This document shows, in pieces, positions 9,450 through 42,195 of a DNA stretch of 47,677 bases. Made by a program: the position numbers and the translations under genes. The stretch comes from Candidatus Cloacimonadota bacterium (lineage in GTDB: Bacteria; Cloacimonadota; Cloacimonadia; JGIOTU-2): assembly GCA_030611765.1 (NCBI GenBank), contig JAUWPE010000003.1:1-47677 (forward strand). Direction: 5' to 3'. A model generated the notes under the pieces. That model did no database searches and was not told where the DNA came from. It was given only the letters and a program-made list of their open reading frames with translations. How positions within the stretch are numbered: the stretch's first letter is position 1; every line of letters starts with the position of its first letter.

Positions 9450-10586
9450 ATGAGTTTCAAGTTCTCCGTTCATACTCAGGATTCGATCACTTCAGCTCGC
9501 ACAGGAGAGCTTACACTTCCTCACGGAACAGTCAAAACTCCTGTCTTCATGCCTGTGGGTACACTCGGTACAGTGAAAGCCACTTCCCCGGAAGAATTAG
9601 AGAACATCGGATTTGATATAATCCTTGGAAACACTTATCATTTGTATCTACGTCCTGGAGATGAACTTATTAAAAAAGCAGGCGGACTGCACTCTTTTAT
9701 CAACTGGGACAGGAATATGCTTACTGACAGCGGTGGCTTTCAGGTCATGAGCTTGCAGCAGTTCAGGAAGATCACGGAAGAAGGCATTGGATTTCAATCT
9801 CATATAGATGGGAGCTCTCATTTTTTCAGTCCGGAACGAGTAATGGAGATCGAGCACAATCTTGGGGCTGATATCATTATGGTGCTGGATGAGTGTGCTC
9901 CCCATCCCTGCACAAAGGAATATGCAAAGGAATCTGCCGATATGTCACTCCGCTGGGCAGAACGATGCAATATCAAGCATGAGCAGCTCGGTGGGGAACA
10001 ATCCATATTTGGAATAGTGCAGGGAAGTATTTTTGATGACTTGCGTGAAGAGAATGCAAAAGAACTTATCAGCATTGATTTCCCCGGCTATGCCATTGGA
10101 GGTTTAGCTGTTGGTGAAAATAAGGAGGATATGCTACGAATTGTTAACCTGATGGATAGGGTTCTGCCCAAAGAGAAACCACGCTATTTAATGGGCGTGG
10201 GAACACCACTCGATCTGCTTGAGAATATCGAGCGCGGGGTGGATATGTTTGACTGTGTGATGCCCACGCGTCATGCACGAAACGGGCAGGCATTTACCAG
10301 AGATGGCAGACTTACAGTAAGAAACGGTAAATATAAAGAGGATTTCCGTCCTATTCAGGATGATTGTAACTGTTATGCTTGTAGAAATTTCTCTCGCGCC
10401 TACATTCGCCATCTTATCAATGTGAAAGAGATACTTGGTGTTCGATTAACGACCCTGCATAATTTAACCTTTTATAATACTCTGATCAAAGAAATAAGAG
10501 AAGCCATTAACAGTGGCGTTTTCTCACAATACAAAAGCAATTTTATCGAACGTTACACACGTTCCGATGATGTCCAATACATATAA
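9450..10586 (+). CDS. tgt: tRNA-guanine(34) transglycosylase
   Basis: TPVFMPVGT, LGNTYHLYLRPG, TDSGGFQVMSL, DMFDCVMPTRHARNG, CNCYAC Zn site. Confidence 0.98.
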   Translation: MSFKFSVHTQDSITSARTGELTLPHGTVKTPVFMPVGTLGTVKATSPEELENIGFDIILGNTYHLYLRPGDELIKKAGGLHSFINWDRNMLTDSGGFQVMSLQQFRKITEEGIGFQSHIDGSSHFFSPERVMEIEHNLGADIIMVLDECAPHPCTKEYAKESADMSLRWAERCNIKHEQLGGEQSIFGIVQGSIFDDLREENAKELISIDFPGYAIGGLAVGENKEDMLRIVNLMDRVLPKEKPRYLMGVGTPLDLLENIERGVDMFDCVMPTRHARNGQAFTRDGRLTVRNGKYKEDFRPIQDDCNCYACRNFSRAYIRHLINVKEILGVRLTTLHNLTFYNTLIKEIREAINSGVFSQYKSNFIERYTRSDDVQYI

Positions 10587-10596
10587 TTATTAAAAA

Positions 10597-11037
10597 ATGA
10601 ACACAAAGAAGTCATTTAAAACCAACGTGACCACCGAGTACACTGAGAAAATAGAAAGAGACTCTTTCACTGAGAAAATTATTGGCTGTGCAATAGAGGT
10701 ACATAGAAATCTCGGACCTGGGTTGCTTGAATCGACATATAAACAATGCTTAGCAAGGGAGCTGTCAACTCATAATATTAAATTCTTTTTGGAACATCCT
10801 ATACCAGTCAATTATAAAGGGATCCATTTAGAATGCGGATATAGAATTGATATTTTATGTGTAAGCAGTGAGCAAAATCGTAAAGTCATCTTGGAATTGA
10901 AATCTATAGAAGAAATTATTAATATTCACAGAGCTCAATTGCTTACTTATATGAAACTTGCCAATATTGATACAGGTTTATTAATGAATTTCAATGTAAA
11001 ACAATTAAAAGATGGAATTGAAAGATTTAAGTTTTAA
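10597..11037 (+). CDS. GxxExxY protein (PD-(D/E)XK nuclease-like), copy 1
   Basis: IIGCAIEVHRNLGPGLLESTY, YRIDIL...ILELKS, AQLLTYMKL, GLLMNF. Confidence 0.92.
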   Translation: MNTKKSFKTNVTTEYTEKIERDSFTEKIIGCAIEVHRNLGPGLLESTYKQCLARELSTHNIKFFLEHPIPVNYKGIHLECGYRIDILCVSSEQNRKVILELKSIEEIINIHRAQLLTYMKLANIDTGLLMNFNVKQLKDGIERFKF

Positions 11038-11096
11038 ATCTCTGTGTCCTCTGCCTGCCACGTCGAAGTGTAACGGAGACGGGTGCTCTCTGTGGT
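10630..11096. mobile_element. GxxExxY cassette bounded by family A inverted repeats (ACCACAGAGnnCACAGAG)
   Basis: Left arm accaccgagtacactgag at 10630-10647; right arm ctctgtgtcctctg[30 nt]tgctctctgtggt at 11040-11096; sits between tgt and porX. Confidence 0.6.
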
Positions 11097-11143
11097 GGGA
11101 AAGAATGTGTGTAATGGATAAGTTCTGATGAAAGGAATATAGA

Positions 11144-12700
11144 ATGAAAAAAGCAAAGATACTCTGGATAGATGATGAAATACAGATGCTCAAACCGCAT
11201 ATAATATTTCTAGAAGAAAGAAATTTCGAAGTGGTTTCAGCATCCAATGGAAACGACGGTATTGCCCTCGTCGAAGAACAAAATTTTGATATCGTACTTC
11301 TCGATGAGATGATGCCCGGACTCGACGGACTGGAAACTCTTGTGCAGATCAAGAAGCTCAATGAAAGTCTGCCTGTGGTAATGGTTACCAAGAACGAAGA
11401 AGAGGGTTTGATGAACAAAGCGATCGCCCAGCAGATCACAGATTATATCATCAAGCCGATCAATCCCAACCAGATACTGATGTCCCTTAAGAAGATATTG
11501 ATGTCTGAAGAGATCCGCAGAAACCGGACAGGCGAAGAATATGCGGAATTCTCTGCAAAACTCAATCAAAAACTTTTTGCAGAACCGAACTGGCAGGATT
11601 GGATAGATATTTATCGCTCCATTGCAGAGTGGGATCTGAAGCTGGATCAGCTATACTACGAAGATATCATTCAAATGCACTCGTATGAAAAGAAAAATTG
11701 CGATACCGAGTTTTCAAACTACATCGCTGCTCATTATGAAGATTTTCTCACTCAATCCGATAGTCCGGTGCTTTCTCCTGATATTGTAAGAAAATACGCT
11801 GCCGACAGATTGTACACAAAGAAGGTTGTTTATTTTGTTGTTCTCGACTGTCTTCGACTCGATCAATTCATGACAATTAAGCCCTTTATTGAAGAGCTTT
11901 TCAATGTGAAAACCGATTATTATTATTCAATTTTACCCACGTCAACGCCATATTCTCGAAATGCAATTTTCAGCGGTATGATGCCAGGCAAGATAGCGAA
12001 AGTGTACCCACAATTCTGGCGCACCAGCAAAGAAGTGGAAAGCAGTCTTAACCGCGATGAGCACTTTTTCATGGATGAACAGCTCAAGAAAATGGATATT
12101 CCCATGCCACATGGAAGTAAGTATATAAAGGTACTGAATACTGAGGAAGGCGAGTATGTCACAAGAAAGATCCCTTCCTATAAAAAAGAGCGATTGGTCA
12201 TTCTCGTATATAACTTTTTGGACATGCTGCTTCATCACAGATTTAAAGATGAAATACTTCAGGAAATTATACCTAACGACCGCGCATTGCGTTCGTTAAC
12301 AAAGCTGTGGTTTTTGAATTCTCAGTTCTATGAGACACTCAAACTCATTGCAAAACAGGATGCGGTTGTCATACTTACAACTGATCACGGATCGATAAAA
12401 GTCGAGCATCCAACAAAGGTTATCAGCGATAAGGAAATCTCATCCGGATTGCGCTCAAAACACGGCAAGAATATCACCTGTAATGATAGGCATACTATCA
12501 AAGTTTCAGACCCGAAAAGATACGGACTTCCTATTGAAAATGTTGTAGAGAACTACATCTTTGCCAAAGGTGATCATTACTTTGTGTATCCAACTGCTTA
12601 TAATGAGTACAAGCGTAAATTCGACGGCACCTATCAGCACGGCGGTGTTTCCATGGAAGAAATGATCCTGCCGGTATCGATCTTAACAACCAAGAAGTAA
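11144..12700 (+). CDS. porX: PorX-like response regulator with PglZ/alkaline phosphatase domain
   Basis: Receiver ILWIDDE/VLLDEMMPG; LDCLRLDQ, SILPTSTPYSRNAIFSG, TTDHG, YQHGGVSMEEMILP; 518 aa; adjacent to tsaE. Confidence 0.9.
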   Translation: MKKAKILWIDDEIQMLKPHIIFLEERNFEVVSASNGNDGIALVEEQNFDIVLLDEMMPGLDGLETLVQIKKLNESLPVVMVTKNEEEGLMNKAIAQQITDYIIKPINPNQILMSLKKILMSEEIRRNRTGEEYAEFSAKLNQKLFAEPNWQDWIDIYRSIAEWDLKLDQLYYEDIIQMHSYEKKNCDTEFSNYIAAHYEDFLTQSDSPVLSPDIVRKYAADRLYTKKVVYFVVLDCLRLDQFMTIKPFIEELFNVKTDYYYSILPTSTPYSRNAIFSGMMPGKIAKVYPQFWRTSKEVESSLNRDEHFFMDEQLKKMDIPMPHGSKYIKVLNTEEGEYVTRKIPSYKKERLVILVYNFLDMLLHHRFKDEILQEIIPNDRALRSLTKLWFLNSQFYETLKLIAKQDAVVILTTDHGSIKVEHPTKVISDKEISSGLRSKHGKNITCNDRHTIKVSDPKRYGLPIENVVENYIFAKGDHYFVYPTAYNEYKRKFDGTYQHGGVSMEEMILPVSILTTKK

Positions 12701-12701
12701 A

Positions 12702-13166
12702 ATGTCTCACGATTCTTTTTCTCAGGAATTTACAAGTGGTTCTGAAAACGAGACTTCCCAGATCGCAAAAGATTTTGCTGAAATACTGCAAATGGGTGAT
12801 GTCGTGGCACTAAGAGGTGAACTGGGCAGCGGGAAAACTTTTTTTGTGAAAAAGGTAGTTGAGAAATTGGGATTTAATGGCTATGTATCAAGTCCAACCT
12901 TTACCATCCTGAATATTTATGAAGCTTCGACCTATCTCTATCATTTTGATTTCTACCGCCTGAATAATATCGAAGCAATTGAAAAGATCGGCTTTTACGA
13001 TCTGCTCACGGAAGATGGGATTTTTTTCATAGAATGGCCAGAAAAAGCTGAAGAACTATTCCCTGATGAATATTTTGAGATAAAAATTGACATTATTAAT
13101 AGAACTCACAGAAAAATAAGTATAAAGAAAATCACTGGAAATGAGGATGCATTATGTCGAAATTGA
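12702..13166 (+). CDS. tsaE: tRNA threonylcarbamoyladenosine biosynthesis ATPase TsaE
   Basis: LRGELGSGKT, VSSPTFTI, YHFDFYRL, FIEWPE. Confidence 0.96.
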   Translation: MSHDSFSQEFTSGSENETSQIAKDFAEILQMGDVVALRGELGSGKTFFVKKVVEKLGFNGYVSSPTFTILNIYEASTYLYHFDFYRLNNIEAIEKIGFYDLLTEDGIFFIEWPEKAEELFPDEYFEIKIDIINRTHRKISIKKITGNEDALCRN

Positions 13167-14500
13167 TGAAAAGTGTTTCCGGCATTCGAGGAATTGTTGG
13201 AGACACTCTCACAACGGAACTTGTGCTCTCTTTTGCAAAACGTTTCGGAGTATTTTCCGGACGAGGAAAAGTCGTAGTTGGAAGAGATTCCCGAACCACT
13301 GGAAAAATGCTGCTCAACGTTGTTTCTGCAGGTTTAGTGTCAGTTGGAGTTGATGTGATCGATCTCGGGATTTGTCCCACGCCTACAATACTTCTTGCTG
13401 CAGAAAATCTCAAAGCTGACGGAGGGATTGCTATCACTGCGAGCCATAACCCGCAGGAATGGAATGCATTGAAACTTATAAATAACACTGGCACTTTTTT
13501 GACGCCAGCCCAATCTCATGATTTCTGGAACATTCCCGAAAATGAGTTAAAAGACCTTGATTGGGCTAAGATCGGATCATTCTCACAATATGGTTGTGCG
13601 ATCGAAGACCACATCGAAGCGATCCTGAAACTTCCTATTATAGCGTCAGATAAGATAAAAGAAAAGAATTTCAAAGTAGTCATAGATTCCACAAATGGTG
13701 CAGGTGGTTTGATGTCACCACTTCTGCTAAAAGCGCTTGGTTGTGAAGTGATAGAGCTGTATTCAAAACCGAATGGAATGTTCTCACGCATTGCAGAACC
13801 GGCAGCAAAAAATCTTGGCGTCCTGGAAAATGAAGTAAAAAAATATGCTGCTGATATTGGCTTTGCTACAGATCCCGACGTGGATAGATTATCCATTGTT
13901 TCTAATGATGGGATTGCGCTTGGCACAGAATATACACTGCTGCTTGCTGAAAAGTATGTGCTCTCACAAAAGAAGGGAAATATTGCTACGAATTTATCTT
14001 CCTCGATGGCTTCAGATGTGATTGCAAAGGGAAACGGAGTTGAAATTTTTCGATCTCGTGTAGGTGAGATCAACGTCGCAGAAGCAATGAAGGAGCACGA
14101 TTGCATCATAGGTGGTGAGGGCAATGGTGGAGTCATTCTGCCCGATCTTCACTTCACTCGTGATGCTCCACTTGGAATGGCGCTTATCCTTTCATATATG
14201 GCTGTTTCACGGAAAAAAATCTCAGAATTAGCAGCAGAAATTCCTAAGTATTATATCTATAAGACCAAGCTGGATATCTCTGAAGATACTGATTTTGATG
14301 AAGTGACGAGAAATATCATTCAAGATTATTCTCATAAAAAACTTGATACACTGGATGGCATTAAAATTATTGATCCTGAGTTTTGGATTCATATAAGGAA
14401 ATCCGGAACCGAACCGATCGTGCGAATTATTGCAGAGAGCAGTTCCGAAGAAGAATCAAAAAAACTGTGTGAAGATATTATTCAAAAATATTTAGGGTAA
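13154..14500 (+). CDS. glmM: Phosphoglucosamine mutase-like phosphohexomutase
   Basis: SVSGIRG, ITASHNP, DPDVDR, GGEGNGG, RKSGTEP; substrate specificity is inferred. Confidence 0.8.
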   Translation: MSKLMKSVSGIRGIVGDTLTTELVLSFAKRFGVFSGRGKVVVGRDSRTTGKMLLNVVSAGLVSVGVDVIDLGICPTPTILLAAENLKADGGIAITASHNPQEWNALKLINNTGTFLTPAQSHDFWNIPENELKDLDWAKIGSFSQYGCAIEDHIEAILKLPIIASDKIKEKNFKVVIDSTNGAGGLMSPLLLKALGCEVIELYSKPNGMFSRIAEPAAKNLGVLENEVKKYAADIGFATDPDVDRLSIVSNDGIALGTEYTLLLAEKYVLSQKKGNIATNLSSSMASDVIAKGNGVEIFRSRVGEINVAEAMKEHDCIIGGEGNGGVILPDLHFTRDAPLGMALILSYMAVSRKKISELAAEIPKYYIYKTKLDISEDTDFDEVTRNIIQDYSHKKLDTLDGIKIIDPEFWIHIRKSGTEPIVRIIAESSSEEESKKLCEDIIQKYLG

Positions 14501-14560
14501 GAAATAATGGAAAAATTTACGGTAAATTGTTTTGATACTAATTCACAAAAAGGAGTATAA

Positions 14561-14848
14561 ATGACAAACTTTGACAAAGATTCCGAAGAATACAAAAGAG
14601 CAAAAATGCGGGTTGATGAGATCAGGGGATTTTGGTCACATCTCGCAGTGTATATTATAGTGAATATTGGTATATTTATTATAAATATGTTAACCTCTCC
14701 TCATCACTTATGGTTTTATTGGCCCCTTCTTGGATGGGGGATCGGTTTGTTTGCACACAGCTTCCATGTATTTTGCGCACAGGGTATATTCGGCAAGGAT
14801 TGGGAGGAGCGTCAGATCAAGAAATATATGGATAAGAGAGGTCAATAA
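14561..14848 (+). CDS. 2TM domain protein
   Basis: GFWSHLAVYIIVN...WFYWPLLGWGIGLFAH...WEERQIKKYM; AGGAG RBS. Confidence 0.9.
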   Translation: MTNFDKDSEEYKRAKMRVDEIRGFWSHLAVYIIVNIGIFIINMLTSPHHLWFYWPLLGWGIGLFAHSFHVFCAQGIFGKDWEERQIKKYMDKRGQ

Positions 14849-14989
14849 GATTACTCTTAATTTATTTCTATATTGTTAGTTAGGAAGCAGTTTCTTATAT
14901 TTTAGTTTAGATAATATTGATCTGATTTTTTGCTTCTATGAGATCGTTTTCTGTATCAAATTCAAAAATCAGAATTATCTTGTAATAAG

Positions 14990-15720
14990 CCCGTCACGGA
15001 GCAGTGTAACGGAGATGGATCGAGAGCTTGGGATTTCTTGTCACAAGTCGGAGAGCTTATGATAAGTAATTCGTTGGAACATTACAACTTAAGACATGCT
15101 CTGCGACATGTCTCAAGTTTTCAAAAAATAGAATTTAATTTATTTTTCTTCATTTTTTTCTAAATCAGTGTTAATCTGTGTTCTGGAAATGAAATGAAGA
15201 CGGATTCTTTTCTGCTCCCGAGTCGTTCTCTTCGCGACCGACTCGTGATTTCCACCACCACAAAAAACAAAAAATGTCATTCTCGACCATGCTCAACTTG
15301 ATTGGGTATCGGGAATCCAGTATTTTCGCCTTCTCTGAACTCCATCCATATAAATCGGGCTGAAGTCCAGTCTGCTAGGGTTGGACTGGACTTGAGAGAC
15401 GAAGTCCTCGAGTTCAGAACAACCGGACAACCGACTATGCATTCTGAACTCCACCCACCTTTGGCGTGCGAAGTCCAGTCTTTGAATCCCTCTCATCAAA
15501 TCGGAGATACCTATAAAAATTAGAGGATAATTTTCTGAAATACTTATTAATAAAGTGTTTGCGAAAGATTTAAGTTTAAAATTACTAATCAATATCATTA
15601 TGGAAATCTTTCAAAAAAAATTAAAAAAAGACGTCTTTCTTCCCGATATTCTGGAATCGGGAATCCAGTATTTTCGCCTTCTCTGAACTCCATCGCCGGC
15701 TGGCTGATGAAGTACAGGAA
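14990..15720. repeat. Mosaic of short palindromic repeats between convergent genes
   Basis: 30-nt unit at 14990-15019, hairpin at 15088-15117, family B arm near 15163-15184, REP at 15216-15250, GTCATT...GGGAATCCAG unit at 15275-15320, 36-bp module repeated at 15310 and 15659. Confidence 0.8.
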
Positions 15721-16617: not shown

Positions 16618-16653
16618 TTTATTTCTCCTACAAATGAATTATGTTACACTACA

Positions 16654-17450
16654 ATAAATAATTTTAACCACGAAAAACACGAAAATCACGAAAGAGTTTT
16701 TTAAGAAAAATATTTCATTAAATTTCATTTTATTTATTATGTGTTTTTTTTATTCATGAATTAACTCTATTAAAAATCCAGAACACGTTTTTTCATATAC
16801 TTCAAAAAATCGTACACTGAATTGAATTATTCTTTTCTTCAAAATAATTTACGTCTAACATAATTTGTATTAATTGTCATTCAAATGCTATCTTTATTTT
16901 TATTACATTATCATAAATAATTTTAACCACGAAAAACACGAAAAGCACGAAAGAGTTTTTTAAGAAAAATAGTCTATAAAACTTCATTTTATTTATTATG
17001 TGTTTTTTCTATTCATGAATTAACTCTATTAAAAATACAGAACACATTTTTTCATATACTTCAAAAAATCGTACACTGAATTGAGTTATTCTTTTCTTTC
17101 AAAATAATTTACGTCTAACATAATTTGTATTAATTGTCCTTCAAATGCTATCTTTATTTTTATTACATTATCATAAATAATTTTAACCACGAAAAACACG
17201 AAAATCACGAAAGAGTTTTTTAAGAAAAATATTTCATTAAATTTCATTTGATTTATTATATGTTTTTTTTATTCATGAATTAACTCTATTAAAAATCCAG
17301 AACACATTTTTTCATATACTTCAAAAAATCGTACACTGAATTGAGTTATTCTTTTCTTCAAAATAATTTACGTCTAACATAATTTGTATTAATTTTTCTT
17401 CAAATGCTATCTTTATTTTTATTACATTATCATAAATACTTTTAACCATG
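16654..17450. repeat. Three tandem copies of a 259-260 bp AT-rich unit, each starting with a family A arm
   Basis: ACCACGAAAAACACGAAAA at 16667, 16926 and 17186, partial fourth at 17445; intervening sequence near-identical. Confidence 0.95.
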
Positions 17451-17494
17451 AAAGTGGTGTTTAAAAAAAATATTCTTAAAAACTTCATTTAATT

Positions 17495-17552
17495 TTTCGC
17501 GTTTTTCGTGCCTTTCGCCTGCAACGGCGTAGCGTAGTGAAGATGTGTGGTT
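17495..17552. repeat. Family A right arm interrupted by a 30-nt micro-element
   Basis: tttcgcgtttttcgtgcctttcg[17518-17547]tggtt; inverted relative to the arms of the tandem array. Confidence 0.8.
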
Positions 17553-26096: not shown

Positions 26097-26235
26097 AGAG
26101 CGTAGAGAGTGAAGCGAAGGGAAGCGATAAATATGAATTCAGAGAATACGAAAATACTGGATTCCCATACCCAATCAGCCAGTTGGCGGAGGCAAGCTTT
26201 CGAGGGAATGACATTATGTTTTTGTTGGTTGTGAA

Positions 26236-27145
26236 AATCACGAGTCGGCCACGAAGGGAACGACTCGGGATGGAGTTTCAATCTTTAAACCCGACTCATC
26301 TTTGCAAGCTGAGTCGTGTTTATCATTATTCAAATAATTTCCTGTCTTCCTCATACTTTTCATCTGAATAAACTTCCATCATCTTTGAATATTCCAACGG
26401 TGTTAGATCAAACCAATCCCATACCTCATTGCAAAATAACTTCCCTTTTCGTTTACCAATCCATTCAAGACAATTTGAGTAGATCCAGTCCTCCGGTCTT
26501 TTAACAAGATTTGATTTCACTGGATTGAAATGGATATACAGGCATAATCTGATAAAATATTTTTCTGTTGCTACTATTTTGTGTTGCAAAGGACTTCGAA
26601 ACAATGTTCCTTTTCTGCTATATTTGTGATTGTAATATAAAGTATACCCCGAAAATATATCGTTAAAGATTTTGTATATGGGCACATCACTATCTTGCCG
26701 GATGAAGAAGTGATAGTGATTCGGCATTAAACAATAAGAAAATATCGTTGCGGGATATAATAGTATTTTCTGTTTAAACTTACTGATAACTCTGAGATAG
26801 TCATTTTTTTTACGGAAAAGATTTTGGTGCTCAACCGCGTGATTGTATATATGGAAACAACTTCCTTTAATAAAATTTTCTTTCTTTACTCTCATAATAA
26901 TTACATATTATCATGGAATCACGAGTCGGTCACGAAGGGAACGACTCGGGATGGAGTTTGCGCGATTTCAACCCGACTCATCTTTGCAAGCTGAGTCGTG
27001 TCTCAAAAATATCATGAGACCTCCTGATTATTTTTTCACAAGAGAATTTGAAATTATTTTTCAACGAAATAAACTACGATTTTTGCGTCAAGGAATATGA
27101 TAATCGAGTCACGAGTCGGCCACGAAAGGAACGAATCAGGATGGA
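26236..27145. mobile_element. REPtron-like locus: RAYT flanked by direct-repeat double-hairpin REP modules (family C)
   Basis: ~84-bp modules at 26236-26319 and 26917-27001 (CACGAGTCGG...CGACTCGGG plus CCCGACTCATCTTTGCAAGCTGAGTCGTG); third partial copy at 27109-27145. Confidence 0.85.
26326..26895 (-). CDS. REP-associated tyrosine transposase (RAYT, Y1 HUH)
   Basis: FHIYNH, YCLMPNHYH (HUH), YYNHKYSRKGTLF, YIHFNPVK, PEDWIYS. Confidence 0.93.
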   Translation of the reverse strand: MRVKKENFIKGSCFHIYNHAVEHQNLFRKKNDYLRVISKFKQKILLYPATIFSYCLMPNHYHFFIRQDSDVPIYKIFNDIFSGYTLYYNHKYSRKGTLFRSPLQHKIVATEKYFIRLCLYIHFNPVKSNLVKRPEDWIYSNCLEWIGKRKGKLFCNEVWDWFDLTPLEYSKMMEVYSDEKYEEDRKLFE

Positions 27146-27419
27146 AGAAGTGAAAAGTGATCCGCCTTCATTACATTTCAGTCTTCTCCGCTGGCGGATA
27201 CGACCTGGCAAGATGGCGCGACTCGTCTTCTTTCCGACCCCGACAAGTCAGCGGGATTACGTCGCAGCAGGCAGGAGAGAGTGGAGCGAAGAGAAATATT
27301 AAATGTAATTTTTTTATGAGTCGTCAGGGACCATTCCCTGATGACAAAAAATCTTAACTCTAAATCCAAAATCCCAAACTAATAAGTAAATTGAATTTTT
27401 AAAATAGGAAAAAGGGATA

Positions 27420-29392: not shown

Positions 29393-29415
29393 GTAAGAAT
29401 AGAACACTCAAGAAT

Positions 29416-30130
29416 AGCACGCAGATGAACACAGATTGAGCAGATTTGCGCAGATGAATATTTAGTATATATTTTCTTTTTCATTTTCATTTTACATTTC
29501 TTAATCAGTGTTTATCAGCATCATCAGCGAAAATCTGCGTTCTATTCTCTTTATAATAGCACGCAGATGAACGCAGATTGAGCAGATGTTCGCGGATAAA
29601 ATTCTTCATATTACTTTATTTCATTTACTTCGTTAATTCATCAGCGTTTATATGTAATCCACTGCTTAGTCGTATTTGAATAGATCTTTCTCCTAACTTC
29701 AGGCTTATTGCCGAAATTAAGTATCAGTCCTACTTCATATTCAGTTGCCTTTAGATAGTTTATTAATTGAGTTTCATTTTCTGGAATTAGAAATTTGTTA
29801 GCTTTGAGTTCAATTATAACCTTATTTTCAACAACTAAATCAGCATAATATTCTCCAACTATACTTTCTTTATAAAACACTTGAATTCGTTTCTGAGATT
29901 CAACAGAAAAATTCTTCATCTCAAGTTCAAATTTTAACGAATTCTCATAAACTTTTTCAAGAAAACCGTAACCTAAAGTATTATACACTTTATAGAAACA
30001 GTTAATGATCTTATCAGTTAAATCTGAGTATTTATATTCCATATTTAATTAATATTTTTGTTTTTCATTTTCATTTTTTCTTTTCTTAATCAGTGTTTAT
30101 CCGTTTCATCAGCGTTAATCTGTGTTCCAT
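29416..30130. mobile_element. GxxExxY cassette bounded by family B inverted repeats, inserted between umuD and umuC
   Basis: GCACGCAGATGAACGCAGAT-type arms at 29417-29455 and 29558-29597; complementary arms at 29503-29543 and 30088-30129. Confidence 0.7.
29641..30042 (-). CDS. GxxExxY protein (PD-(D/E)XK nuclease-like), copy 2
   Basis: VYNTLGYGFLEKVYEN, YYADLVVENKVIIELKA, QLINYLKAT, GLILNFG. Confidence 0.94.
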   Translation of the reverse strand: MEYKYSDLTDKIINCFYKVYNTLGYGFLEKVYENSLKFELEMKNFSVESQKRIQVFYKESIVGEYYADLVVENKVIIELKANKFLIPENETQLINYLKATEYEVGLILNFGNKPEVRRKIYSNTTKQWITYKR

Positions 30131-36203: not shown

Positions 36204-36299
36204 GGTTTATTATAGGTCTTTCTAATTTTAAGTGGGTTGAAATATTGAAATAAACGAATCTGAATTTCCAATATCCAACACGGAATAACCAATATCCAT

Positions 36300-36600
36300 T
36301 TAACTACACTCTCTCTTAACTCTTTTAAAGTTGCTTTCAATTTATTTATACTGTTAGATATTTCGCTTAACATATTGTTTTCCATTATTGTATTAATTGT
36401 CTAACGGAGTAAATAAAATCAGACCTAAATTCAGTATTTTGAGCTTCTCCATAATTCGCTGTAGGTGATGATCCGCTTTTCAGTATTTGAAATATGGTAT
36501 GTTTAACTGCCTTTGTTTCGGGTAGTTGCGCATAAACATGAATAATCTTAACCGAATAATCAATCAGACGTTCCTGCAAATCGAACTTTTTATGAATCAT
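36300..36600 (-). pseudogene. Four-helix-bundle (23S rRNA IVS-like) protein, interrupted and truncated
   Basis: DLQERLIDYSVKII...QILKSGSSPTANYGEAQ...DFI; removing 36345-36409 restores DFIYKLKATLKELRES. Confidence 0.85.
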
Positions 36601-36724
36601 TTTCTTTATTCTTTTCCTTCATTAATTGGATATTCCGTGCCTGCCGAGCCATAGCCTAAGCGACGGCTGGTTGAATATTAGATATTGTTTGCAACTTACC
36701 AACTCAATGCTCAAAAGATCCTTA

Positions 36725-39143: not shown

Positions 39144-39224
39144 TGAACGACCTTTCGCAGTGCAGTTTTTGAGATGGGGGAAAATTGTCAATTTTTGGGA
39201 GAAAATAAATCAAATAAAATCTTA

Positions 39225-39810
39225 ACCACGAAAAACACGAAAAAACACGAAAAAATAAATTTAAACAACCACAGAGGGCACAGAGAAACACAGAGATAAA
39301 AATAACCGAGAAGAAAAGCGAAGAGAGAAGAGCGAGGAAAGAATAAAAATCACGATCCGTCTTCATATCAACTATCGGGACGACGCTGTGGCAAGCCAGT
39401 CTTAGTTTCACTACTCTGTGATAAAACGGCGTAACATGCAGGTAGAGGAATTTTCGACTTGTGACAAGATAATTCCAAATAAAAAAGGGCATGTCATTCC
39501 CGTGAAAACGGGAATCCAGTTTATTAATAACAGCACGCAGATAAACGCAGATTGGGCAGATTTTGGCAGATATATATTGAATATTTTTAACCACAGAGAG
39601 CACAGAGAACACAGAGGAATTATCAAGTTAAAATTTTAAATATAATCAGTATTCCTTCTTTGCAGGATTTCACGGGGTAAATCAGTTTCATCAGCGTTAA
39701 TCTGTGTTCTATTCTTTTCAGATCCCCGAGTCATTCCCTTCGTGGCTGACTCGTGAAACGCAACACATGTTTATCAGCTTCATCAGCGTTTATCTGCGTT
39801 CTATTCTCTA
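39225..39810. repeat. Dense repeat mosaic between divergent lptF and the beta-helix gene
   Basis: Family A at 39225, 39268 and 39590; GTCATTCCCGTGAAAACGGGAATCCAG at 39493; family B at 39532-39571 and 39680-39803; family C at 39725-39756. Confidence 0.85.
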
Positions 39811-41885: not shown

Positions 41886-42195
41886 CACGACTCAGCTTGC
41901 AAAGATGAGTCGGGGCGAAATGGGACGTAGATATACGCAGATTCAGCGGATTTTCGCAGATAAAGAATTAAATTTATTTTTCATCATTATATTTTCTGAA
42001 TCAGTGTTCATCCTGTGAAATAATCCCGATGCATCGGGATTCCTGCTTTGCAGGATTTCACGGGGTAAATCAGTTTCCTCAGCGTTAATCTGTGTTCTAT
42101 TCTTTTCAGATCCCCGAGTCATTCCCTTCGTGGCTGACTCGTGAAACGCAACACATGTTTATCAGCCTCATCTGCGATTATCTGCGTTCTATTCT
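41886..42195. repeat. Repeat mosaic including a 157-bp direct repeat of 39651-39807
   Basis: Family C at 41886-41914, family B at 41925-41961, nested element at 42011-42069, direct repeat at 42039-42195. Confidence 0.9.

Follow-up and report, generated by a model that had tools for sequence, protein, structure and literature searches.

The element described here is a repeat unit of 30 nucleotides (nt) occupying positions 11054–11083 (+) of contig JAUWPE010000003.1 (C98 in our numbering) from the Candidatus Cloacimonadota draft genome GCA_030611765.1 (G000; 2.23 Mb in 189 contigs, 37.6% G+C), and the whole 47,677-nt stretch analyzed, which is that contig, is referred to as the window throughout. 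The unit lies directly downstream of a gene of the GxxExxY/PDDEXK_3 nuclease family (10597–11037, +; 136 bits), sequence homologous to which is present at the locus in the relatives G005, G009 and G010, while the upstream sequence differs in six other relatives. It separates two 9-mers of a tandem array, the left arm of which (11040–11053, +) reads ctctg and then tgtcctctg, and the right arm of which (11084–11096, +) reads tgctctctg and then tggt; the left arm is contiguous with the right one in G005, G009 and G010, the right arm is likewise seen in orthologues and in paralogous arrays, and uninterrupted paralogous 9-mer arrays of the same host-arm type exist (e.g., C119:631–659).

Three further units had been named together with this one in the original prediction, and all four were found to read as quoted there, each of them sitting between a G and a T. 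Whereas the unit at 11054 belongs to what we call the CC..GG subfamily and departs from the degenerate consensus at two positions, the one at 17518–17547 (+), with three mismatches, is of the CA..TG subfamily and interrupts tttcg^tggtt at the right-hand edge of another 9-mer array (17495–17517, +; tttcg cgtttttcg tgcctttcg; repeat family D2). The unit at 36640–36670 (+) is degenerate, 31 nt long, and lies at ccgtg^ttgaat within a repeated element of about 510 nt, whose paralogues are filled at the same point in C50, empty in C99 and C148, and occupied by a different CCTGCC...GGGG hairpin in C79. A diverged unit at 14990–15019 (+; CCCGTC...GATGGA) is placed inside yet another palindromic repeat (..cttgtaataag^tcgagagctt..) and is 80% identical to 11053–11082 (repeat family D18, in which the repeat finder placed three of the named four). 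When up to three mismatches are allowed, the degenerate 30-mer CCTGYCNNGGCGTARYGNARYGRAGACKGR matches the units at 11054 and 17518 in the window and matched none of 100 dinucleotide-preserving shuffles of it, while the two more diverged units were scored by the profile search at 18.1 bits (E 0.006) for 14990 and at a weak 12.7 bits (E 0.41) for 36640. The decayed copies predicted on the opposite strand are both present as well: at 27161–27212 (−) there is a degenerate nested composite consisting of a left half (CTTGCCAGGTCGT), a truncated inner hairpin (atccgccagcggagaagactga) and a right half (AATGTAATGAAGGCGGA), in the same layout as that of intact composites elsewhere in the genome, and at 39356–39425 (−) two adjacent decayed units can be read, TTTATCACAGAGTAGTGAAACTAAGACTGG followed by CTTGCCACAGCGT..ATGAAGACGGA, the latter with extra letters between its halves.

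Genome-wide, the observation of a precisely inserted 30-nt repeat family was confirmed, and the reading of its unit as mobile is supported, although with the G^T rule relaxed. A profile search built from the four named units gave 109 matches at E up to 10 and, when iterated, 151 at E up to 0.05; a strict unit pattern allowing up to three substitutions was run with the reversed genome as its control, and nested copies were counted by stepwise removal of the inner units from the sequence. The non-coding 30-nt consensus, CCTGYCNNGGCGTARYGNARYGRAGACKGR, is represented by 200 copies in G000 after such iterative removal (167 of them contiguous, versus none in the reversed genome), all of which fit the same 30-nt frame, so the boundaries are not variable across the genome. 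Strict patterns with the reversed control were preferred since loose half-unit patterns had to be dropped for matching shuffles nearly as often as the genome (e.g., 840 versus 696), and a generic scan for CCTG followed by any hairpin was just as uninformative (417 matches versus 297 in the control). The units have a mean G+C content of 56% and lie overwhelmingly outside open reading frames (ORFs; 161 of 168), even though the genome is 85% coding under the crude ORF model used. With the exact degenerate pattern, 53 copies are counted in G000, and the pattern is present in 14 of the 20 other genomes of the same taxonomic family and in none of the 20 genomes screened from the same class outside that family, its reverse giving no match anywhere. 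Since it enters other small repeats and its own copies precisely and without duplicating the flanks, the unit ranks among the smallest bacterial DNA units that appear to be mobile.

Covariation among 143 distinct unit sequences, with 500 column shuffles as the control, shows a predicted fold in which a 4-nt unpaired tail (CCTG) is followed by an irregular bulged stem (positions 5–13 with 23–30) and an apical mini-hairpin. Near-invariant are positions 1–4 (CCTG), G9, C11, G12, A14, G17, A19, G22 and A24–C27. The stem model comprises the pairs 5-30, 6-29, 8-28, 9-27, 11-25 and 13-23, and the apical G/A-Y-G-N-A-R-Y mini-hairpin adds 15-21 and 16-20 around a G-N-A triloop. Four of these covary to an extent that no shuffle reached, namely 5-30 (TA 70, CG 46), 8-28 (CG 64, GT 31, AT 20), 15-21 (AT 64, GC 62) and 16-20 (TA 86, CG 53), whereas 9-27 (G-C) and 11-25 (C-G) are fixed, and conserved mismatches are found at 10.26 and 12.24 (both G.A) and at 14.22 (A.G). 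A single hairpin thus spans positions 5–30, and the CCTG tail lies outside its first covarying pair, 5-30. Over eight pairs (1144 cells), 960 combinations are Watson–Crick, 100 are G.T and only 27 are A.C; therefore, the strand written CCTG... is the folding one. One folding strand and tolerated G.T pairs fit RNA as well as they fit single-stranded DNA, and the units might accordingly have been copied through RNA, with a small structured transcript being reverse-transcribed and its complementary DNA integrated; but the copies show neither a tail nor duplication of the target, are not truncated to varying extents at the 5' end, and have constant boundaries, which makes this route a highly improbable one.

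The apical part of the unit deserves a remark of its own, GCGNAGC being a very stable DNA mini-hairpin. When the orthologous units of G000 (C137) and G005 (C7) are compared, the apical mini-hairpin GCGTAGCG of the latter is replaced in the former by a longer hairpin (TCCGTCCCGACTAGTCGGGAAA) with the outer frame unchanged, so the tip appears, on this comparison, to be a module open to exchange. The tips of other hairpins are occupied by a perfect palindrome of 16 nt, TCCGCCAGCTGGCGGA, which also replaces the apical mini-hairpin in some units; it has 71 sites in G000 with up to one mismatch (e.g., C1:12569, C8:5350 and C52:578), a truncated copy in the window at 27186–27199 (−), and is found in 20 of the 21 genomes of the family, including one (G003) without a Y1 transposase match.

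The removal of units was examined against orthologues, beyond the paralogous arms alone, and empty paralogues were searched for by BLAST. At 11054, G005, G009 and G010 have cctctg directly followed by tgctctctgtgg, with exactly the 30 nt missing; at 17518, G007 reads ttttcg and then tggtt, and the same 30 nt are missing in G009; at 36640, G009 reads attccgtg and then ttgaatatt, an exact 31-nt gap. These are the restored hosts that had been predicted, lacking a target duplication, and they provide orthologous empty sites for three of the four named units. Beyond the window, G005 carries a nested unit that is absent from G000 (C88) as an exact 30-nt gap, G000 carries two nested units (60 nt, C35) where the host unit is uninterrupted in G005, and a 43-nt half-plus-whole unit filling an aacca^cgaaaa site in G000 (C56) is missing from G005. 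The boundaries at these six loci can be placed to within 1 nt, and no target is duplicated over more than that length. Host arms devoid of the unit are common within G000 too: a gap-free “empty” paralogue exists there for 110 of the 152 flank contexts, some of these being trivial matches in tandem contexts. The gene adjoining 11054 shares 99%, 96% and 96% protein identity with its counterparts in G005, G009 and G010, respectively, and since the unit is missing from the closest relative as well, these alignments make its gain on the G000 branch the more parsimonious reading. The unit at 14990 is also present in G009, in a gap-free alignment, and is therefore an older copy. A broader orthology test left 29 of 41 units of the relatives without a spanning alignment (the intergenic arrays being too different, or the G000 contigs ending), and an anchor-based retry placed 7 of 20 loci; in these seven orthologous intervals, the relatives hold 17 units and G000 holds 5. 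Larger unit-bearing blocks, of 200 nt and 404 nt, likewise vary in presence from species to species. As for public sequencing data, a contig from one run covers 10500–15337 of the window without differences and may stem from the source sample, while related-strain contigs from two lake runs (one DNA library and one RNA library) carry 58 other letters in place of 11038–11128.

Two familiar kinds of small insertion were considered and rejected. A miniature inverted-repeat transposable element of the DDE type would be expected neither from the orthologous empty sites, which show no duplication, nor from the ends of the unit (CCTG... and ...GACKGR), of which only 5-30 and 6-29 are complementary while the first four letters remain unpaired; CRISPR-like spacer uptake is contradicted by the same lack of duplication and by the inserts all belonging to one family. 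A different small insertion family is met nearby: a hairpin element of 73 nt (..CCCTGTGAAAT..ATTTCACTGGG..) in C81 of G009 has no counterpart after position 15163 of the window, where ...ttctaa runs straight into atcagtgtt....

The unit sits inside other repeats, as had been proposed, and its hosts are of three kinds: tandem 9-mers (tgctctctg, tgtttttcg, etc.) with TGGTT at their end, several repetitive extragenic palindrome (REP)-like hairpins, which are entered at the 3' edge of their loop (e.g., ctcaacattccga^tgttgag, cttcgaatcctaa^(a)gcgcagcg.. and ccccag^cttggtaa), and the unit itself. The claim that entry takes place between a G and a T fared only partly well, as G^T is the commonest junction (79 of the 200 copies) and is the one seen at all four named units, but is no rule genome-wide, where T^A (36), G^C (21), A^T (20), A^A (18) and G^A (11) follow. 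What 146 distinct non-nested contexts do share is a loose target consensus, YYNG^TG, with a pyrimidine at −4 (84%) and −3 (86%), G at −1 (65%), T at +1 (66%) and G at +2 (62%). Stepwise removal uncovers 27 and then 5 further interrupted units, and among 33 self-nested units 29 were inserted after position 13 (GGCGT^AR), 3 after position 4 (CCTG^YC) and 1 after position 28, which builds L(L(L R)R)R arrays reminiscent of Russian dolls. Which junction is occupied depends on the inserted copy: of the 49 CC..GG units, 42 are at G^T and none is nested, all 7 CA..TG units are at G^T, and among the 90 TC..GA units 31 are nested and 31 follow an A. The mutual information between flank position −1 and unit position 5 is 0.38, versus a shuffle maximum of 0.08, and one identical 30-mer is found in 9 different contexts, 8 of them nested. 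Unit subfamily thus predicts the junction occupied, as element-encoded target choice would give.

That the units are seen only inside other repeats, without duplication, could also be explained if no transposition took place at all and a discrete module spread between repeat copies via gene conversion or template switching on short host homology, perhaps triggered by breaks that the small nucleases abundant here (GxxExxY/PD-(D/E)XK, DUF559 or GIY-YIG) introduce. The host sequence is almost always repeated, as the empty paralogues for 110 of 152 contexts attest; 6 of the 9 GxxExxY genes (the ORF at 10597–11037 included) have a unit within 400 nt, and both DUF559 genes are near units; the larger unit-bearing blocks (200 nt and 404 nt) are likewise present in some species and missing from others; and no cognate Y1 transposase gene has been singled out. 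Such copying, however, would need a non-homologous step for each entry into a new host family, and the hosts are many and unrelated, comprising 9-mers of several types and no fewer than five REP-like hairpins besides the unit itself. Flanking homology often extends over only 9–15 nt, the YYNG^TG junction is common to unrelated hosts, the nesting point is fixed (29 of 33 after position 13), and the subfamilies prefer different junctions, which argues for site recognition rather than homology. We therefore deem copying on host homology unlikely, although it is the main rival.

The placement of the units relative to genes raises another question, that of function. Many arrays stop 20–30 nt short of a ribosome-binding site with its start codon. 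Where the neighboring genes are co-directional, 45 units run antisense to them and 31 sense, with 26 more between convergent genes and 13 between divergent ones, and neighboring units within 150 nt of each other are in the same orientation in 30 pairs and in the opposite one in 6. A structured motif kept by selection, be it a DNA hairpin bound by a protein or an RNA element that stabilizes or terminates transcripts, with presence and absence reflecting deletions of a dispensable hairpin, would suit the compensatory stem changes and frequent G.T pairs, the extragenic location and the arrays lying just ahead of gene starts, and REPs have been credited with such roles (in the passages of PMC3733652 cited here). 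The mixed orientation, by contrast, speaks against it, as does the outcome of a search of Rfam 15, in which no family matched at the gathering score and the three matches at E up to 5 were unrelated chance ones, none of them on the unit; moreover, function alone explains neither the self-insertion at a fixed point nor an identical 30-mer in 9 contexts together with gains in both directions between sister species. Selection on a functional hairpin as the whole explanation thus strikes us as improbable, albeit host function and mobility of the unit do not exclude each other.

What is set out above establishes the family itself, its covariation-derived structure, its precise polymorphism between presence and absence, the fixed point of nesting and the subfamily–target link; how the unit moves is a matter of interpretation. 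Precise entry and exit without duplication, a single folding strand, a tetranucleotide 5' of the hairpin foot and an element-dependent target argue against both a DDE transposon and a double-stranded circle, for which 30 bp seem too short in any case, and these same four features fit the single-strand chemistry of Y1 HUH enzymes. We give about as much credence as doubt to the reading of the unit as a micro-transposon of the single-strand, non-autonomous kind that one of the Y1 (RAYT/IS200-like) transposases of this genome moves in trans, and of its parts, it is the enzyme and the single-stranded intermediate that we infer. The unit would then move as single-stranded DNA, one strand folding as a hairpin; a Y1 HUH transposase of the RAYT or IS200 type, encoded elsewhere in the genome, would cut and rejoin it in trans; and the route would be the “peel and paste” of IS200/IS605, with the CCTG tail acting as a guide-like tetranucleotide at the hairpin foot. 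In Y1 HUH chemistry as outlined in the cited part of PMC6006769, the hairpin is bound, and the guide tetranucleotide at its foot sets both the cleavage and the target sites.

Candidate enzymes are plentiful. There are 14 matches to Pfam Y1_Tnp in G000, mostly RAYT-like genes of 179–230 amino acids (aa), and when six of these ORFs were compared with NCBIfam, one turned out to be of the IS200 type (72.6 bits versus a cut-off of 55), one to be a RAYT by REP_Tyr_transpos (106 bits versus a cut-off of 80), and four others to score 61–77 bits with the latter model. One of the candidates lies in the window (26326–26895, −; 189 aa; Y1_Tnp 26.4 bits versus a cut-off of 23; REP_Tyr_transpos 61.5 bits, below the cut-off of 80), and its translation includes NHYHF and YIHFNP, which we take to be the HUH and tyrosine motifs; the hairpin repeats flanking it (26224–26319, 26905–27001 and 27095–27145) are of a different family from the unit. 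Flanking by distinct hairpin repeat families of their own is seen for most Y1 genes (the window gene and those in C58, C142, C52, C161, C167, C119, C35, C122, C113 and C11), so the genome carries many REP/RAYT-like systems, while three Y1 ORFs of 201–230 aa (in C31 and C78, and at C113:22414) show no repeats in their 350-nt flanks. A search for a transposase gene flanked by the unit, which had been put forward as a check, covered the flanks of the 14 Y1 ORFs, the gene families near units and the Y1 counts in 15 relatives, and singled out no enzyme. In counts from kin genomes, which do not amount to a statistical test, Y1 matches and exact-pattern units number 0 and 0 in G003 (95% complete), 4 and 1 in G001, 4 and 11 in G007, 9 and 21 in G005, 11 and 41 in G009, and 14 and 53 in G000, G003 being the one sister species without a Y1 match and also without a unit.

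A good deal can be held against movement by a Y1 enzyme, and it is best gathered in one place. No Y1 gene is flanked by units alone among the 14 whose flanks were read, a 189-contig draft being, admittedly, one that could hide a REPtron; units do lie within 400 nt of 3 of the 9 RAYT-family ORFs, where, as far as the flanks were read, they are inside those genes' own, different REPs; and no exact-pattern unit adjoins any listed Y1 gene in G005 or G009. Three relatives have Y1 matches and no exact-pattern units at all (G013 with 4 matches, G014 with 2 and G015 with 7). The strand bias of IS200/IS605-type elements is not seen, with 50 arrays on the G-rich strand and 54 on the C-rich one (local GC skew, p 0.77; contigs are short and the origin is not known), and neither do the 45 antisense versus 31 sense units between co-directional genes help. 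The tetranucleotide is CCTG and not the GT[AG]G or CGTC of REPs, while a conserved GTAG/GTAA is internal (positions 12–15), and the unit has one hairpin in 30 nt in total, with neither a left-end/right-end pair nor a gene as in IS200/IS605. The copies in the window fold no better than shuffles (z from +0.2 to +1.1 in five of six folds, with or without flanks, and −1.6 for 36640 with its host arms), and the hairpin therefore rests on covariation, which related subfamilies can inflate. Finally, some copies travel with their host repeat, so that the link between subfamily and target may be partly historical.

Likeness to REP/RAYT systems (REPtrons, bacterial interspersed mosaic elements (BIMEs) and REPINs) is nonetheless considerable as far as the cited portions of PMC6006769 and PMC3733652 describe them: the unit is short (REPs are 20–65 nt) and GC-rich, and its copies are extragenic and number in the hundreds; it forms an imperfect hairpin with a tetranucleotide at the 5' foot, and its subfamilies show complementary stem changes and G.T pairs; and several repeat families coexist with several RAYT-like genes in one genome. 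In the cited passages of PMC3733652 and PMC6006769, REPs are 20–40 bp long (another account gives 21–65 nt), carry an unpaired GTAG or CGTC tag, are mostly arranged in inverted pairs with head-to-tail dimers rare, and in some families lie inside other palindromes; REPINs are defined as REP doublets in the cited text of bioRxiv 10.1101/2021.07.10.451892. Unlike in REPtrons, no RAYT gene is flanked by these units alone; unlike the inverted pairs of BIMEs and REPINs, the units are single, tandem head-to-tail or nested (30 same-orientation versus 6 opposite pairs); and unlike REPs, they show the precise gain and loss of single 30-nt copies between sister species. A CGTC-tagged REP was considered as well and rejected, the unit having no 8–9 bp stem after its TGTC. 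Movement of the REP type has been argued mainly from doublets (REPINs) in Proteobacteria.

With IS200/IS605 elements (IS608 and ISDra2), as characterized in the cited part of PMC6006769, the unit shares precise insertion and excision without target duplication, a recognition hairpin of about 20–25 nt with the guide tetranucleotide just 5' of its foot, and a target specified by the sequence of the element (here, the junction being predicted by the unit subfamily). It seems to differ from them in having a loose YYNG^TG target that varies by subfamily, instead of a fixed tetra- or pentanucleotide, and on these short contigs it shows no orientation bias with GC skew (50 versus 54 arrays). Nesting within small palindromes has precedents in the GTAG-15 REPs of Anabaena variabilis, GTAG-23 of Thermomicrobium roseum (for which hundreds of unoccupied target palindromes are reported) and CGTC-1 of Halothiobacillus neapolitanus, all in the cited sections of PMC3733652; the paper does not use the word “nested”, those sections do not describe fixed-point self-nesting or orthologous empty sites, and their repeats belong to another sequence family and to other phyla. 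The comparisons support a unit that shares the general layout of REPs and IS200 ends and differs from them in its CCTG tag, the lack of a REPtron, the head-to-tail and nested arrangement and the exact gain and loss of single units. A literature search, with subscription journals and supplements outside its reach, returned no description of the unit. Outside bacteria, the GC-rich palindromic clusters of yeast mitochondria are mobile, about 30–50 nt long, located in AT-rich spacers and sometimes inserted into one another; these are organellar, however, and duplicate a short target, and we know of no link between them and Y1 transposases.

A bolder reading, which we offer tentatively and would not bet on, is that of an undescribed minimal class of transposon: a single 30-nt hairpin with its 4-nt tail would be the whole unit, with its Russian-doll arrays in one Cloacimonadota family and a target code of its own that sends different subfamilies to different junctions, a fixed point in sister copies among them. 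Its mover would be either a Y1 enzyme that works on one hairpin only or some enzyme so far not connected with repeats of this sort. To our knowledge, Y1 action on a single hairpin has not been shown for any REP. Should a Y1 enzyme be the mover, the unit would be a very small natural substrate on which to see how a hairpin plus a guide sets the cleavage site and the target, and REP/RAYT biology would extend to an uncultured phylum with a dozen RAYT-like genes in 2.2 Mb; should it be another enzyme, a new route of DNA mobility would be at hand. Either way, the turnover of intergenic DNA is fast, as the 17 units of the relatives versus the 5 of G000 in seven orthologous intervals illustrate, and as the units often directly precede gene starts, gene expression may be affected and assemblies may break at them.

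The favorite target of the units, tandem 9-mers of the form (TGNNNTYYG)n ending in TGGTT, is itself abundant, with about 100 arrays in G000 versus 24 in a shuffle under a lenient pattern; in the window, such arrays lie at 11040–11096, 16651–16685, 16910–16944, 17170–17204, 39209–39243 and 39574–39608. Many of them are followed, 20–30 nt on, by an AGGAG ribosome-binding site and then a start codon, and they may be promoter-region modules. Between two minus-strand genes, positions 16639–17453 hold three tandem copies of a 259/260-nt block (74–95% identical; family D1), each with a 9-mer array, the copy number of which seems to differ in public contigs (their joints skip or repeat about 258–551 nt). 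A GCAGAT-type intergenic repeat of roughly 10-nt words (family D6) often adjoins the 9-mer arrays, as at 29410–29468, 29552–29610, 39526–39584 and 41916–41974.

Other small hairpins that start with CCTGCCC and end with GGGG (e.g., CCTGCCCCGTGTAAT..ATTACACTGGGG and CCTGCCCCGTTGAAT..ATTCAACTGGGG) share their kinds of junction with the 30-nt unit in the cases read by hand, namely ccgtg^ttgga sites in C35, C38, C69, C79, C92 and C122 and 9-mer arrays in C50, C120, C138 and C186, which suggests, as far as such hand-read ends can, a wider group of elements with common ends. The approximately 510-nt repeated element hosting the unit at 36640 spans 36204–36724 of the window, has more than 10 paralogues and separates two genes that are directly adjacent in G007, G010, G008, G004, G001 and G002; a small ORF within it (36388–36600, −) matches the N-terminal half only of TIGR02436, “four helix bundle protein” (26.1 bits versus a cut-off of 24).

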